Both the position numbers and the translations under genes were made by a program. DNA of 64,000 bases from Octopus vulgaris (lineage: Eukaryota). Shown here piece by piece: positions 3,201 to 61,312 of this stretch (the stretch's first letter is position 1; each line of letters begins with the position of its first letter). The stretch is taken from NCBI GenBank assembly GCA_951406725.2, contig OX597820.1, forward strand, positions 58,094,001 through 58,158,000, written 5' to 3'. Under the pieces are notes generated by a model. That model saw nothing but the letters and a program-made list of their open reading frames with translations, ran no database searches and was not told the origin of the DNA.

Positions 3201-5266
3201 AATTTTGCCTGGCGTGCTAACAATTCTGCTAGTTCGCCGCCTTCAGTTTTGTTAAAATATTGACACACTTAAAAATGAGAGCCAGAAGTACCAATATAGC
3301 TACAGTTTTATGGAAAGTCGAATAGTATATATGGTAGGCAAATTCATTATATAAAAAATAGGCATGGGGTTAAGGCTAAAAATGTGAAGACTTGGAAATA
3401 ATTTAGGCAATAACTCAAGCAAATTTTACTGAGAATTTGTTGTTATAGGTAGATTTTATTGTAATATATAACGAATTTTTGTATTATTCTATTTATTGTA
3501 CTAATCATGTACTACTATTATTTTTATAACCTATTTTCAAATTTCTAATTATTAATTAATTATTAAAAAATGAATTTTTTTAAAGTGCAAAAAATATTTT
3601 AACTGAGTTATTTTTTATTTCTAATAGAAATAATAAGTAATAACAAATAGAAGTAATAACTTGGAATTAAATGTTTAGTTTTAATAAAAGCTAATATTTT
3701 CTAAATCAAAATTTTCTATTTGAAATTTTATCCTTAGCTGCAATCTTTTAAGTAAAAATTTTCTTGTTCTCTACTTTACCAGATGTAATAAGCTGTCCTG
3801 AACTTTTACAAGTGTAATAACTTGTCTCGTAATTTTCCAGGTTTATAATCTTAAAAATATTATTTCTCTTGCTTGCATTTTCCAAATAATACATACATTA
3901 TAGTGACTTTCTAAAGAAAGTCTGAATTTTGTGCCTGTATCATAGTATGAGGTTTCTATACAAACAGAGTGAGAGGAAGAGGGAGGGAGAGAGAGACAGA
4001 GAGAGAGAAATTCGAATTTTTAATTCAACCACTGAAGTTCATGCTTTAAAGTTATTAATTTGCGCTCAAGATTTTCGGGTGTAACATAATCGTATATTTT
4101 CCTTAATTTTTCCGTGAGCTGCTGTTGGTGTGCTGTGCTGTTATTACTCACCTAACACCTTATGATTGCATTTAAGTATCCGATTCTGAGAAGTTGATTG
4201 TCTATAGTTTCTTCTAGTTTCATTATTTAACTGAGCTCATTGCGTTGTTAAATTACTTCATTATCGCATACTCTACAGATATATCCCAAGTCTTTCGTCA
4301 AAGAAGCAGCACGCGAATACAAGCAGGTAGAGATATTACAATTCGTGTTATCACATACTTTCGTATAGTCTTCCATCACTAGAGTGATTGGGGTTTATCA
4401 ACTACCCCCGTTAAAACAGGCGCTATTTAATGATAGGTTTAAGAAATAATTATTTTCAAATAGTAGTTTTGAAAATATTTTTAAAGTATGTATATTGCAC
4501 AGCCACTTCTGCCAGATCAGTTTTATACGGCGATATATAAATATTCTGATGGTAATGATGTTAGCGGCACTTTGTTTGCATATGTATATACTTAGATTTA
4601 TGCATTTATGTTTACATGCTTCTATATGTTTTTACTTCAAGCTAAACTTTGAAAACTTTTCGAAATCCGATTAATGCCATGTAATTTTAATTTCCTAATT
4701 AGCGGTGCTCCAATTAGGTTTGTGCTACTCAGCCTTCCAAGTTTGGAGTTAAGGCAGTTTGTTACATATAAAAACGCACCAATAATTACAGGTATAAATC
4801 GAAAGTCCAAGTGGACTATCTGTTGGATTCTCAATAGTTCAGTATATGTTTTTTTTTTTTCACATCTTAAACATTTTGTTAAAAAATCTTTATACTACTG
4901 TGTCCACCTTCACGTCTAGCACACATCTTGTTCCTCTATCACTGGTGATGCGAAAAACAGCAGTGGTGGTTAATATCTTCATTGTCGGGATATCTAAGTT
5001 GCACATTCTTCTAAGTGCCCAAACTAGTATACGAAATATTAATATGAGAAATGGTTGTGAAAATGCATTGTGGGATATCTTAAGTGTACTAATTTATTCT
5101 TTTGCCAATACATATACACACAGACACAAATATACATGTATGCTTATACATGTATATATATATATATATATATAATATTATTAGAGACAAAACCACTATT
5201 TTGCAAATCAAACAAGGAAAGACTTAATCAATATATAAAAAATTTTAATATAAAGTAAATAAATCG

Positions 5267-5310
5267 CCACTACAATTGTTTCCTGTCTTCAAATGACATT
5301 CATCAGGTGG
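5267..5310 (-). ncRNA. Minimal type I hammerhead ribozyme
   Basis: Minus strand: ccac-CTGATGA-atgtc atttgaa gacag-GAAA-CAATTG-TA-gtgg; triplet GUA. Confidence 0.8.
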
Positions 5311-5432
5311 ATTTCATATATAAAAATATCAATATTTTAAAAAATAAATAAATTTAAAATGGCTAAAACTATAAATAATATAAATTTATCAATGAAAAAA
5401 TATAAAATATTGATATTTTTAGATAGGAAATA

Positions 5433-5475
5433 CACCTGATGAATGTCATTTGAAGACAGGAAACAATTGTAGTGG
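5433..5475 (+). ncRNA. Minimal type I hammerhead ribozyme
   Basis: cac-CTGATGA(5436-5442)-atgtc atttgaa gacag-GAAA-CAATTG-TA-gtg; palindromic stem III ACAATTGT. Confidence 0.8.
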
Positions 5476-5663
5476 CGATTTATTTACTTTATATTAAAAT
5501 TTTTTATGTATTGATTAAGTCTTTCCTTGTTTGATTTGCAAAATAGTGGTTTTGTCTCTAATAATATTATATAATATTTTACTATAAAATTGGATTCAAT
5601 CCTAAATCTGATTTTTCCCTGTAAATTTGGATTTATTCCCTAATATTTATTATATATATATAT

Positions 5664-6269
5664 TTCCCCCTCCTTTTCCACCCCTCTACCCTACCCCTTC
5701 GTCGCAAGATACTACGTGCCTTCCGTCGCCTCCAGCTTGATCCCACCCCCCGCCCCATTTTCCCTAACCCACCCCTGTCCTCCTTCAAACGAGCCCGCAA
5801 TCTGCGTGACCTCCTGGTCCATAGCACCCTCTCTCCTTCCCCCTCAGCCCCACACGGATCATTCCCTTGCTCTAGATCCCGCTGCAACACTTGCCCCTTC
5901 ATCACCAACACCACCGCTGTCACCGGCTCCAACCGGCATACTGTACGCATTAGGCACTCTTTTACGTGCACCTCGTCTGGCCTTATTTACTGCATTAAAT
6001 GCAACCTATGCGGGATGCTGTATGTAGGACAGACGGGACGCCGGTTGTCCGACCGATTCACAGAACATTTGAGGGACGTTCGCCTACACTCTTTTTCTCC
6101 CGTCGCACGCCACTTCCGCTCGGCCGGCCATTCCCTAGATGACATCTCAGTGTTTGGTCTCGCCCCCCACAATGGTCGTCCACTTTCCAGGCTCCACTTG
6201 GAGCAATGCTACATCTTCACCCTACAAACTACTACCCCACACGGACTTAACACAGCCCCCTCCTCTTGA
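5664..6269 (+). pseudogene. C-terminal linker, Zn finger and GIY-YIG endonuclease of a 5'-truncated Penelope-like retroelement (Neptune-like)
   Basis: The frame of ORF 6015-6269 is open back to 5664: FPLLFHP..FKRARNLRDLLVHS..FPCSRSRCNTCPFI..FTCTSSGLIYCIKCNLCGMLYVGQTGRRLSDRFTEH..VARHF..LEQ..PHGLN. The CxxxxCxxC linker is typical of the Neptune clade. Confidence 0.92.
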
Positions 6270-8837
6270 GGTCCTCTTCTTCTTCCCTTTTTTTTTTCAG
6301 ATACACCACCCCCACACACACACCTACCTACCTCCCACACGCCTGTTCACACACACACATACGTATACACATCTACGTACATACATTCACACATTTAATC
6401 ACACACACTTATAGACATACATGCACACACTAACATACAAACCAACATGCACATACATACACGCATACATACACACACACATACATACTTACACACACAC
6501 ACACACAGACATACATACACACATACATACACACATATACATACGCACATACATACACACACACTCACACACACATATCGCACATACATACTTCACACAC
6601 ACACACATGCACACATACATGTAGGCACACACACATACATACATACATACCCACACATGCACACCTTTACACGAATGCACACACACATACACCTATTTGC
6701 ATCCAGGCAGCCCCCCTCTTTTCTGCTCTCCGGTTTTGGCTGACGGATCCTCGGTTCCCGCGGAGCGGGTCGTTCGAGGGCCTTTGCGCTCGCGCGCCTT
6801 GGCGCGTGCTGGGGGCTTGGTCGGCCCCTTGGGCTTGCGTTGTATTGTTTGTGTGTTGTGTGCGTGAGCGCGCTTCGTGTGTGTGGGCTTGCTTCGGGTG
6901 TGTGCGTGCGTATGTATACATACATACCCACACACACGCATGCATCCCTACCCACATACATACACGCACACCTACTCTCACACACACATACACACACACA
7001 CACACATACCCGCACATACACACACATACATACATACACACACATACCTACTTCAGACATACACACACACAGACATACACCCATACACTCACACTCACAC
7101 GCATACACACACACACATACACACGCACACGTACACATACACACACACACACACCTACATACATACATTACACTTGTACACACACACACTTACATTCATA
7201 CACACACACATACTTACACACACACTCGCCTGCACGCGCACACACATGCATGACAAACACCCATACACTCACACTCACATACGCACACACCAACATAAAC
7301 ACGCACACGCACACACACACTTACACTCCCACACACATACATACGCACCTACATACACACACGAACGCATACACACGCACACACACGCATACACACATAC
7401 ATTACACACGTACACACACACCTACATACACATGCATACACACACACACAAACATGCACGGACACACCCAGACATACATACATACACCTATACACACACG
7501 CCCACACACCTACATACACACACATACACGGACACACCCATACATACTTACATACATACACCTATACACACACGCCTACACACCTACATACACATACATG
7601 CATACACACACACACATATACGCACATACACACACATATACGCACATACATATATACCCACACACATGCACACGCACACATACGCACATGCATGCATGCA
7701 TGCTCACGCGCACACCTACACGCATACATGCATACATGCATACACACACACACACGCACGTACACATACATACATACACACACACATACATACACCCATA
7801 CACATCCTACACACACATACATACACACTCACACATACATACACACACACTTACTCACACACCTGCATGTACGCGCACACACATGCACATACACACACTT
7901 CCACACACACACACGTACATACATACACACTCATACACGTACACACACACACACACACGGACATACATCTATGCACACACATATATACACACATACTTAC
8001 ATGCATTCATCGGACACACTGACACCCAGACATACACACAGACACACTCACACATCCACACACACACATACTTACACACACACTCGCAGGCGCGCGCACA
8101 CACGCGCTTGCGCCGGCTCGCGCACGCATACGCGCATGCATGCACCTCGCTCTTGGACCCGACGAGATCTCTAGCTCGTTTCTGGGGCCGTCGCCTGTCG
8201 TTGGGTTCTCCCACGCCCGTCTCCGCGAACCACTCTTCCATCTTCCTCTCAGCTGGAGTCCTTTTTCCTTATAACCTCCCCTTTTTTGTACACACACGCG
8301 CACACATACATACACCCACTCACACACACACATTTGCTTAAATATATACATTACTCTTACACACACTTCAAATCTACTCGCCATACATACATCTACGACA
8401 CTGGACACACACACACTACCACTCAACACACACACTGGCACGTTACATACGCCCCCATCCCTTCCCCTCCCTCCCTTCCTCCTTCCTTCATTTTTTTACT
8501 ACTGACCTACTGACCACTGTCTGCTATGCCTACTACTGTTTCGCCCTACCTCACACGCCTACACACAGACGCACACACTAACATATACATATATTTTTTG
8601 TTTTTTTATCTCGCCTCACACACACATACACATACGCACACGCACACACTCACACATACACACACATCTGTTGCGTTACCAACCCTGTCTCCACTCTTTT
8701 GGCTTTAAAAACCTACTTTGCTCTTGTTATCGTAAACTTCCGCCTTTCACCATGTGTACTTCGTAAATACCAGTCGCTTTTTTTTCTCCCTCTGTTTGCC
8801 CACCTCGGGTTCTTTCTTTCCTCTCTCTTCCATCTTT

Positions 8838-8875
8838 ATGTTTCCGACGAAGAGCTCCGCTCGAAACGTCATACC
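8838..8875 (+). ncRNA. Degenerate minimal hammerhead motif at the PLE 3' end
   Basis: CCGACGA(8844-8850)-aGAGC tcc GCTC-GAAA-CGTC; core U4>C substitution and weak stem I. Confidence 0.6.
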
Positions 8876-9170
8876 TTCCTGCTTCCATCTTTCCTGAGCG
8901 CCTATTAATAATAATACTGTAATTGTTCCACGTGTTGTTGTTTTTTCTGTTTTCCCGTTTGGATTAAAATTATATATATATATATATATATACATACATA
9001 TATATATATATATACATACATATACACACACACACACATATATATATACATATATATACATATTTATATATACGTATATACATATATATACATATATATA
9101 TATACGTATACATATGCAAGTATAAATACATATATAAATACATGTATATATATATGTATTTATATATGTG

Positions 9171-9631: not shown

Positions 9632-10001
9632 TTGAAATTTATAGAAAAACAAAAGACAAAGAGAAGTCTATGAAGAACAAGCAAGTGTTTTAGTTTGACG
9701 CTCAGGAAAATAAAAAAAGTATTCTACGTTTCGAGCCTACGCTCCTCAACAGAAAGAAATAAAGGAAAATAAATAGAGAGAATGAAAAAACTTGTAGATA
9801 TCAGCGCGCTATGCTGGACATCTGAAATCTACAGGTTTTTTTTTTTCATTCTCTCTCTGTTTATTTTCCCTTATTCATTTCTGATGGGGAGCGAAGGCTC
9901 GAAACGTAAAAATTTTTTTTTTATTTCCCGAGCGTAAAACTAATACACTTGCTTGTTGTTCATAGACCTGTCTTCGTCTTTTGTTTTTCTATAAAGTTCA
10001 A
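9632..10001. mobile_element. Palindromic element with two decayed hammerheads
   Basis: Arms 9632-9798 and 9828-10001. Plus strand: CTGATGG-gGAGCgaagGCTC-GAAACGTA at 9881. Minus strand: CTGTTGA-gGAGCgtagGCTC-GAAACGTA at 9725-9752. Resembles 8844-8960. Confidence 0.85.
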
Positions 10002-22440: not shown

Positions 22441-22956
22441 TTCTTTTTTTTTCTTCTTTCAAATTTGCTTCCATTTCTTGCCGAGTGTCTTCCCGACTCC
22501 TAGGGTAGAGAAACTCATAGTATACATTGGTAGGCCATTAAACTAAACTCACTAGTTCGTTCATTTTTTTAAAAGTTAAATTAAAATACATGGGTTGTAA
22601 TCGTTCTCACATCGACAATGCTCTTCTCAATACGTGTGATGTACCAGTTAAGACAATCTTTTGCACTTCTTGCAAGGATGGTAAGCCAGGGATCATTCTC
22701 ATATAATTTTCGGTTCCCTTCTTGATCATTCCTAGAGTTCCTACGATCACTGGTATTGTAACCGCCTTGAGATGCCACATTTTCTCAATTTCAATGAGCA
22801 GGTCTTTATATTTTCTGAGCTTGTCAAACTCTTTCGCCGAGATATTATGATCACAGGGGATGCTCATGTCGATCAATAAGCAAACTTTATTGTTTTGGTC
22901 TTTCACAACAATATCTGGTTTATTGGCTTTGATGGTTCGGTCTGTATGTACTGGAA

Positions 22957-22957
<1 letters not shown>
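22441..22957 (-). mobile_element. 5'-truncated R4/Dong-clade LINE (restriction-like endonuclease C-terminus plus 3' UTR) in (AAT)n
   Basis: FPVHTDRTIKANKPDIVVKD..CLLIDMSIPCDHNISAKEFDKLRKYKDL..W..TIPVIVGTLG..QKIVLTGT (ORF 22607-22906, extended); AAT repeats on both sides. Confidence 0.9.
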
Positions 22958-57423: not shown

Positions 57424-57929
57424 TGACACATCTGTCTCTGTGTGCGTATAAATATATATATATACATACTCGTATCATTATCGAACCGAGAGTTTAACAG
57501 CGGTCCTTCCATAGCACTTACATAGCGTTACCTGCCATCTTGAGTCTTCTGGATACCAATACCTCTCATAAAGAACCCTAGAGTCTGCCGCTATTCCCAG
57601 CGTAACAGATTATGTCTACAGCATAATTGTCCATTTACCCATCTCCCGAGGACTCGTCTCACAAATAAAAATATAATCGGGTCTCCCAACCAATACAAAA
57701 CCCAAACCTCAAACATTTCCAGTTCTCCAAACAGAATTCTCTTTTAGCCATAATCAATTGGCAAATGAGCTAGAAAAACATTCTAGCCATCACACAAGGC
57801 TCCACAACCCCACCACCACCTGATCGCACAAACTCTCATTGCTGCCATTAACAAGCAAATCACCGAAACAGTCAAATGCAATCACCACTATCGCCTCAAC
57901 ATTTTTGCGCAGTGCACAAGGCATCAGCC

Positions 57930-59537
57930 TTTCCACTAATGCCTAAAAATGGAAGATGGAATTTATTGAGGACTGGGATAATAACCATCGACACCATGTC
58001 CCGTTTTTCGTCCTCACAGAGACCCATCTCAATAACTTCCACTTGGAAGCTGAGGTGAGAGTCAAGAACTTTACAGCCATCTATGCTGATCGTGTCGGCA
58101 GAAGAAAGGATGGGACCGCCATTTTCGTGCACAATTCGTTTTCGGCTGAAGCAATGGACGTATTTACCAACAGCTACTGTAAAGCAGCTTCTGTGTTTAG
58201 TAAAACCAACAATTTAATAGTAGTTGGGCTCTATAGGCTACCCCTGACTACTTTTCTGCGATTCAAGGAATGCTTCAACAGTATTGTTTCATCCATCAGT
58301 GTCATGCTGACAATATATTAATGATGGGGGACTTCAAACTTCCCAGTGTTGATTGGTCCACAAGCAGCTTGAAACCAGGTTTTTCCACCTCAACCCCTGA
58401 TAAGGAAGCAATCGAATTGATTTGTGATTTCATGGATGAGTTTTCCCTGACCCAACTTGCTTGTGAACCAACAAGGTGTCACAAAAATACCTTGGACTTA
58501 GTGTTCAGTAACCACACTGACACTATCCTCAATATTGCAGTGGAAAAACACCACTACTCTCAGACCATGACATGGTTCTCTGCGATCTGAGATTCTACCA
58601 CCCAAAGGTCAAATCCAGTGACATCTCTCCATTTCTCCAGTCCATCCATTTGACACTATAGATCTTCATAGCGCAAACTGGGATGCGACCAATAATGATC
58701 TTTCACAAGTTGATTGGGTCTTTACGCATGCACACCCCACTCCAACATAAACACATCATGGCAGACATTTGTAGATACTGTGTCAAATATATGCACAAAT
58801 CATAATCCATTAAGATCAATATACAAATCAAAGTGCAGAATCCCTAGAAATAGAAGAGCAATTATCAGAAAAATTTAAAAAATAAACAAGAAAATCAACC
58901 AACTTAAATACGGCCAGCAGCAACTCACCCATTCGACTGCCATTGCATCACTCGAATCGGAAAAAATACGACCTCCAAAAAAGCATGATGACCATCATTA
59001 ACAGTCAAAGAGCAGCTGAGGAGAGTTGGGCATTGAGAAAATAAAACTCAATCCCAAAATGTTCTTTTCATTTGCCAAAAAAAACAACATAAAGACGCTG
59101 TTTCCACTGTTGGTCCTCTGGTTGACGAGAACAACACTCTACATGGTGATGCAAAATCCATGTGCGAGATACTGCAGAGACAATACTGCTCTGTCTTCAG
59201 TGATCCGAATGCGGTTGATCTGGCTAGTATCAGTGATGTAAACCCTCAGCTAACCATATCTGACATAACGTTTGGTGTTCCTGATATCCTAACAGAAATA
59301 GATAAGATCAAGCACAACTCGGCAGTAGGTCCCGATAAGTTCCCGGCCACTGACCTGAAGATGTGTCGACATCAAATTGCACCCCTCTAGCTGATCTCTG
59401 GAGAAACTCACTTGATGCAGGCTACATTCCTGATCATTTTCTTTCCCAGTCCTTCGTTCCAGTCTTCAAAAAGGGAAACAAATCTCTTGCAGTGAACTAC
59501 CATCCTATTTCACTTACTTCTCATATCATTAAAGTAT
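57930..59537 (+). pseudogene. CR1/Jockey-group LINE ORF2 relic: APE endonuclease, linker and start of RT
   Basis: Frameshifted ORFs with FVLTETHL, DR..RKDGTAIFV, GLYR, MGDFKLP, PTR..NTLDLVF, NPKMFFSF, AVGPDKFP and PVFKKG..NYHPISLTS. Confidence 0.92.
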
Positions 59538-60232: not shown

Positions 60233-61246
60233 TATAAGTATAAGTTTAACAATACATTTTGAAATTTATTCGCATACACTCATGCTGAGTTGCTTAAATT
60301 ATATATAGTAGAAATTATTTTATAAAGTATATCATATTACATTATAGTGGAAATTATATTAAATTGTATATAATGAAAATGTTGTTTCAACACGGATTCT
60401 ATGACGTGTGTAAAGGCAAATGGCATCTCTTTGTTTGATGTTAGCATGGCGTCAAAAGACCAAGTTCACGAATTAATCTGTTTCTGTTATTTACCAGGAA
60501 TCGATTCTATTTTAATTTCCATTTAAATTCAACGTAACGTGAATAGCCATCAAACAGAGAGATTTGAGAAGAAAATAAAAAATACATGGATTTATTAAAA
60601 ACTTTGAACCGCAGTTATTATTAATCTTATCATATTTAATATTCTTGACATCAGCTTGAAATTAGATACTTGCCAATATAACGTTTTTAGAAAACTTAAT
60701 AAAACTGTTCTTATCCAGAAGAATTCGTTTCACCCACTAAGCTATTTCAAAAAAATATATCTTAAAATATCAGATAACAACCATCAAACATCTCTTACTA
60801 AAAAACTTTATCCAATAATAGAGCAGATTGTATACAGAAGTTTTTATCACGGAGTCTTCTTAAAGTTACAAATAAGTAGGCAAAAAACTACATTATCTTA
60901 TAATTCCCATATAATCATGAAATACCACTTCTTATTGCTAAAAATTTTATAAACGTTTTACACAAACACTTTCTCAAACATTACAAAAGCCGTATAATAT
61001 TTGACAATAACAATACTAAGTTAATTAACTACAGTACCACATATAATTTTCATGTATCTTTGTTTACTATTAGCCGTAAGAAATTTGCAGTTTCTTCTAA
61101 TTTTAAATACATACATGTATCTATCTGTCTGTCTATGTGTCATATATTATATTATATTATATTATATTATATTATATTATATTATATTATATTATATTAT
61201 ATCATATTATATTATATACACAGATACATATATATGCGTGTATATG

Positions 61247-61312
<66 letters not shown>

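Follow-up and report, generated by a model that had tools for sequence, protein, structure and literature searches.

An ancestral A>G burst, probably from ADAR editing of hairpin RNA, in both inverted arms of an octopus Penelope-like retrotransposon

The DNA and RNA editing of retrotransposons has reportedly been reviewed by Knisbacher and Levanon (2015). Excerpts of two papers (PMC8586724, PMC5625713) describe ADAR as preferring long dsRNA and as disfavouring a 5' G, and the excerpt of the first cites ADAR-linked A-to-G hypermutation of avian retroviruses, namely RAV-1 (Felder 1994) and avian leukosis virus (Hajjar and Linial 1995). For Penelope-like elements, a CX2-5CxxC linker preceding the GIY-YIG domain is a feature in the portion available of PMC8557442, and the minimal hammerhead type of their pLTRs is covered in that of PMC4209133. 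Among the titles and abstracts listed in a search of mostly open literature, none dealt with a retrotransposon family founded by an ADAR-edited copy, and the accessible sections of PMC3185545, PMC5974252 and PMC3409221 held nothing informative for comparison.

The window analysed here is a stretch of 64,000 nucleotides of Octopus vulgaris DNA, in which an almost A-free patch (6721-6910) lies within one of two inverted arms of a Penelope-like element. On comparison of the sequences the arms prove to be inverted duplicates, and we consider it very probable that a one-strand A>G burst in them came from ADAR editing of an ancestral hairpin RNA, which would then have been reverse transcribed, likely in the germline, and have founded the present family.

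The host element and its inverted arms

The features of the copy in the window are as follows.

~5663..8972, + strand: 5'-truncated copy of a Penelope-like element between (TA)n runs, boundaries read from the sequence
5663..6269, + strand: 3' end of the ORF, with a C-x4-C-x2-C linker and a GIY-YIG endonuclease (translation; Pfam GIY-YIG E=0.0027, below cut-off)
6697..6916, + strand: arm 1, which holds the patch 6721-6910; inverted duplicate derived from the precursor of arm 2 together with the CA repeats upstream of it; carries ancestral A>G
6743..6747, + strand: surviving ancestral A pair of the patch, both 3' of G
6917..8064, + strand: spacer, the predicted hairpin loop, an A/C-rich degenerate microsatellite (~360-1670 nt across copies)
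8065..8270, + strand: arm 2, the original segment, predicted to pair antiparallel with arm 1, also with ancestral A>G
8844..8867, + strand: minimal hammerhead-like core of the pLTR, predicted by pattern match, with C replacing the usual U at core position 4

Copies of the family are 97-99% identical. The UTR end is repeated upstream of the ORF, as a partial tandem, in 8 of 39 copies, the full-length partial-tandem copies being L022, L025, L031, L032, L041, L046, L047 and L055. The full ORF of L046 matched RVT_1 (Pfam E=0.001, below cut-off). A protein search gave 463 homologues at E<=1e-30; among the matches listed, most possessed PF00078 and many PF01541, none exceeded 58% identity, and ten were used as outgroups. 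Rfam did not recover the core at 8844-8867, returning only microsatellite-driven matches below cut-off. A single ORF running from RT to GIY-YIG, the linker, the pLTR with its hammerhead core and the (TA)n target fit a Neptune-type Penelope-like element. Core-like words seen by eye in the patch were considered as an edited hammerhead, a candidate that was dropped for want of a stem II.

Other retroelement sequence occurs in the window. A near-perfect inverted repeat of ~150 bp at 5160-5600, from another PLE-like family, contains two hammerhead-like cores, one per arm (5278-5306, minus; 5436-5464, plus), and its arms differ at few sites with no A>G burst. At 9700-9935 two degenerate pLTR ends with hammerhead-like cores form an inverted pair that resembles the 3' terminus of a second PLE family (L201-L208, L214-L216; ~67% amino acid identity) which is without a G-rich arm. 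ORF fragments at 22607-22957, 57900-59400 and 60600-61260 appear by eye to belong to other retroelements (non-LTR endonuclease/RT pieces and a decayed PLE-like piece).

Arm 2 is situated in the 3' UTR/pLTR of the element. Divided into thirds, the patch pairs best with 8196-8262 (left), 8131-8207 (middle) and 8065-8145 (right), an antiparallel order. When 6640-8330 is folded as a whole, the pairing of the left third is kept and the right part pairs with CA repeats of the spacer, so that the right half of the patch has several possible partners. In 9/9 copies the core duplex outperforms 60 dinucleotide shuffles (z -4.6 to -10.3), arms of one subfamily pair better than arms of different subfamilies (duplex residual of -5.6 kcal/mol for the own group vs +1.5) and covarying columns are seen between the arms. 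A long dsRNA duplex between the arms of the transcript is predicted, extending over ~150 paired nt in young copies. Arm 1 has little A in every subfamily group (6.2, 5.7, 4.5, 4.5 and 3.8% A). Similar CA-rich words of ~20 nt flank it at 6638-6657 and 6915-6934, possibly by microsatellite chance.

The A-poor patch in the present family

The 190 nt of the patch comprise 76 G, 61 T, 47 C and 6 A, in flanks of 40% A, 39% C and 5.5% G, and lie 3' of the GIY-YIG-like ORF remnant; the preliminary description of an almost A-free stretch with A/C-rich, G-poor surroundings in a PLE 3' UTR was therefore accurate. Across the 64 kb, segments of 150 nt with <=15 A are confined to the patch and to a (TG)n microsatellite at 37.3 kb. 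The same description counted a 5' G at five of the six surviving A and took it as a sign of ADAR. The count is correct, but as a sign it is weak (p=0.04 at 40% G): two of the six (6743 and 6747) align to ancestral A, and the remaining four arose later or are unaligned.

A search with the patch gave 429 first-look candidates, and all 40 that were scored are 94-100% identical. When 39 paralogues were chosen by their ORF alone, 37 possessed the patch, with 5-10 A each. Contigs of two DNA runs, from two organisms, span its full length without a G>A variant at 5%; runs X5 and X17 cover it in scraps only. The patch is genuine, and the sequencing or polishing artefact that had been offered as an alternative is excluded. 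Since the 37 paralogues and the two DNA runs share the patch, the window copy is not itself freshly edited. It departs from the family majority at 9 sites of the patch, one of them A>G, and private A>G in the patch is absent among the young copies (0 in 225 A observations). Long open ORFs and the patch occur together in young copies (e.g. L209).

Three side observations concern arm 1. Copies L021 and L029 are without it, apparently through internal deletion, and L128 ends in a TA run at its start. In the patch homologues of 38 young copies, private T>C is 3.7-fold commoner than in other regions (17/2095 vs 29/13240, p=6e-5), the changes being scattered and their context not clear.

A>G changes between lineage P and the two-arm copies

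Older two-arm subfamilies, found via a loose-end motif, form a ladder O-S-M-Y. An ORF-anchored search with an old copy gave 40 matches, 29 of which were newly fetched: six with arm 1, thirteen (lineage P) with a homologue of arm 2 and no arm 1, and ten with neither arm. With BLAST, the P segment matches arm 1 on the opposite strand. By these alignments, lineage P is an old sister lineage in the same genome, carrying the unduplicated precursor of arm 2. A younger family offshoot, Q (L133, L139, L140, L142, L146, L147 and L149), has no match to either arm. The P-type and two-arm states are both present in the DNA runs of two organisms.

In a three-way comparison over 130 columns, the majority of 11 P copies (leaving out the partial L131 and L136) was set against the three basal two-arm copies nearest P. 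P differs from old arm 2 mostly as A against G and from reversed arm 1 mostly as T against C, so that in each arm the sense-strand change is A>G. This change makes up 16/23 of the changes in arm 2 and 21/28 in arm 1 (37/51 together). Pooled over the arms, the counts from P to the basal copies are A>G 37/63, C>T 0/51, T>C 3/74 and G>A 1/56 (p~3e-13), and with all old copies (13 for arm 2, 19 for arm 1) they are 34/64, 0/49, 6/73 and 1/55, respectively. Outside the arms, A>G between P and old two-arm copies amounts to 1/100 in the ORF, 1/89 just after it and 2/41 in the HHR region, that is, 4/230 against 37/63 within the arms (p=2e-25); within the duplex-free lineage P it is 3/307. The sense-strand G>A of APOBEC-type editing is not seen at the 1/56 given above.

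The clearest contrast needs no root. Where a G of arm 2 faces U in arm 1, P has A at 15/15 sites; where it faces C, P has A at 1/22 and G at 21/22 (p=2e-9). At both kinds of site, arm 1 preserves the state at the time of duplication. A perfect duplex would have 74 AU and 56 GC pairs, and the basal copies have 21 AU, 48 GC, 37 GU and 8 mismatches. The A-run of arm 1 and four other A became T or were rearranged, rather than becoming G.

A 5' G precedes 2/37 edited and 4/20 kept A (p=0.17), which is the ADAR direction without being significant; with all old copies the figures are 2/34 and 5/21 (p=0.09), arm 1 alone gives p=0.053, and edited sites show no 3'-G bias. About five arm-2 edits of the basal copies are absent from other old copies, which suggests more than one round of editing. 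No unedited two-arm copy was found among 52 matches to a degenerate motif (49 all-A, 2 edited, 1 single-G, no inverted pair); 20 of these were fetched, and 19 are oriented or extended as P-type arm 2, the other being a short fragment. The host genome has four loci with adenosine-deaminase (A_deamin) exons, ADAR1, ADAR2 and ADAT taken together.

The earlier proposal of A>G on the sense strand of the element, fixed in DNA, is thus borne out over both arms, with a predicted dsRNA substrate and an unedited relative now identified. Retrotransposition of an ADAR-edited transcript remains probable in an ancestral form and fails for the window copy; the edits in arm 2 had been missed. In the comparison of paralogues that had been envisaged, A>G dominates as expected and avoidance of a 5' G falls short of significance. 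A G-rich patch common to all paralogues, the mark of a native island, describes the young family and does not extend to lineage P, and the comparison with P overturns a native G/U-rich arm without editing. Tracing along the two-arm lineages alone (leaving out the chimeric L104) gives no loss of A (5 vs 7 A), because the burst predates them.

The restoration of every G to A, previously used as an argument, does not stand up. The likeness of the restored right end to sequence at ~8334 is non-specific, since letter-swap controls that mimic no kind of editing match the flanks equally or more closely, and a Markov test was not discriminating. Of 58 patch G in the window copy that align to the precursor (L125 left out), 20 were A and 29 were already G; many patch G, as complements of arm-2 C, have been G all along. 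Conversely, of the 41 ancestral A that align, 20 have become G, 14 T and 5 C, and 2 are still A.

After the burst, in a fixed register, G.U pairs fall from 37 to 16 and mismatches rise from 8 to 39. The top trunk change is T>C in both arms, and also in the ORF and the HHR region, so compensation is not proven; at G.U sites it amounts to 16/27 vs 7/20 (p=0.14), which is only suggestive of partial compensation. An A>G excess, the signal of ongoing editing, is seen neither in young copies nor on terminal branches.

Proposed history and comparison with known systems

The history would begin with lineage P, in which the precursor of arm 2 is present and arm 1 is not. To this, arm 1, homologous to the reverse complement of the precursor, was joined at TA-rich palindromic points. 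The new transcript would have folded into a near-perfect duplex of ~200 bp with a 1-kb loop, in which ADAR would have deaminated ~60% of the A, the element's RT reading inosine as G. Most of what separates the oldest two-arm copies from the precursor, in either arm, is A>G, which creates G.U pairs. Editing would have taken a single cycle or a few, sister branches having most edits in common and differing in a few. The edited copy presumably remained active because its ORF was untouched, and its lineage would include today's young, intact copies. Later subfamilies drift with their arms kept complementary, T>C being the commonest trunk change, possibly in partial compensation. The burst would have been quick, since the ORF branch joining P and the basal copies is ~0.4%.

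Could G.U pairs have accumulated without a deaminase, by RT errors after the duplication together with selection against a perfect duplex, or by an error bias of RT on a structured template? C>T would yield G.U pairs just as readily and ranks with the most frequent changes in other parts of the element, but the arms have none (0/51); A>G, moreover, is rare outside them (4/230), and the ORF branch on which the changes fall is very short. We regard such an origin as improbable, even though the neighbour bias is not significant and the later co-evolution of the arms (-5.6 vs +1.5 kcal/mol) means that selection may act on them.

Deletions occur readily in perfect inverted repeats, which lends some plausibility to the reverse polarity, with a wobble-rich two-arm form as the ancestor and P derived from it by G>A in arm 2 (through repair of, or deamination at, mismatches in the hairpin) and then deletion of arm 1. 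The rooting bears on this directly: FastTree trees root in P, or between Q and P, so that both free trees root on the P/Q side, and 5/6 informative P-vs-basal sites match P on outgroup polarisation; amino-acid polarisation is mixed, and both rootings are compatible with AU tests (p 0.91 and 0.76). The rooting is thus only suggestive of P as ancestral to the two-arm lineages and is not statistically settled. The reverse course requires G>A at 15/15 G.U sites yet at 1/22 G-C sites, and leaves unexplained how a duplex with mostly G.U mismatches originated; APOBEC-type G>A editing is, moreover, reported absent from 19 invertebrate genomes in the available part of PMC4866542. We judge it more improbable again than an origin without a deaminase. 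Fresh editing of the transcript behind the window copy, or an artefact, could be argued from composition alone and is refuted by the 37/39 paralogues with 5-10 A each, the 40/40 scored matches, the two DNA runs and the single A>G among nine sites off the family majority.

If ADAR editing of an ancestral hairpin did cause the burst, the locus would be a dated fossil of RNA editing entering a genome, with the precursor, the earliest edited copies and the later subfamilies preserved side by side. It would imply that ADAR met the element's RNA in the germline, and would make the heritability of A-to-I edits through retrotransposition directly testable in a cephalopod. Inverted arms, mismatches of G.U only and a duplex-free sister lineage would serve as a search recipe, and such A>G bursts would inflate estimates of element age. 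More tentatively, ADAR may have acted as a heritable mutagen which rescued the retrotransposon, turning a perfect hairpin into a tolerated wobble duplex, later selected as a working RNA structure, so that the edited lineage became the young, abundant and intact family; this route might shape many families in heavily editing animals and carry RNA edits into the germline on a large scale, an idea that we hold to be speculative and rather less than even in likelihood.

The octopus case resembles what the excerpted literature gives for the avian retroviruses in having an RNA-strand A>G cluster fixed in DNA via reverse transcription. Those are single exogenous virus variants, whereas here a non-viral retrotransposon would have been edited in both arms of its own internal hairpin, the edited form founding a lasting lineage. 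With the APOBEC-edited LTR retroelements of vertebrates, as presented in the sections available of PMC4866542 and PMC2873906, it shares deaminase scars written at retrotransposition, their detection through edited and unedited relatives and the distortion of age estimates; there the change is G>A on cDNA and found in vertebrates only, with invertebrates as the negative control, while here it is A>G, confined to the putative dsRNA and in an invertebrate. Clusters of hyper-edited RNA at inverted repeats, which are most pronounced in octopus and frog according to extracts of PMC5625713 and PMC9068888, likewise have dense A>G in long repeat dsRNA, with upstream G depleted there; those are seen in RNA only, unlike the present pattern, which is in DNA and inherited. 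Finally, the element resembles Neptune-type PLEs (PMC8557442, PMC4209133 and PMC11167929, in part) in its RT with C-terminal GIY-YIG, CX2-5CxxC linker, partial tandems, (TA)n targets, hammerhead core and tendency to inverted pieces. The inverted pieces described in those portions are 5'-adjacent by-products of insertion, whereas the one reported here is found within the UTR, is inherited along with the element and is predicted to form a conserved long-range duplex.
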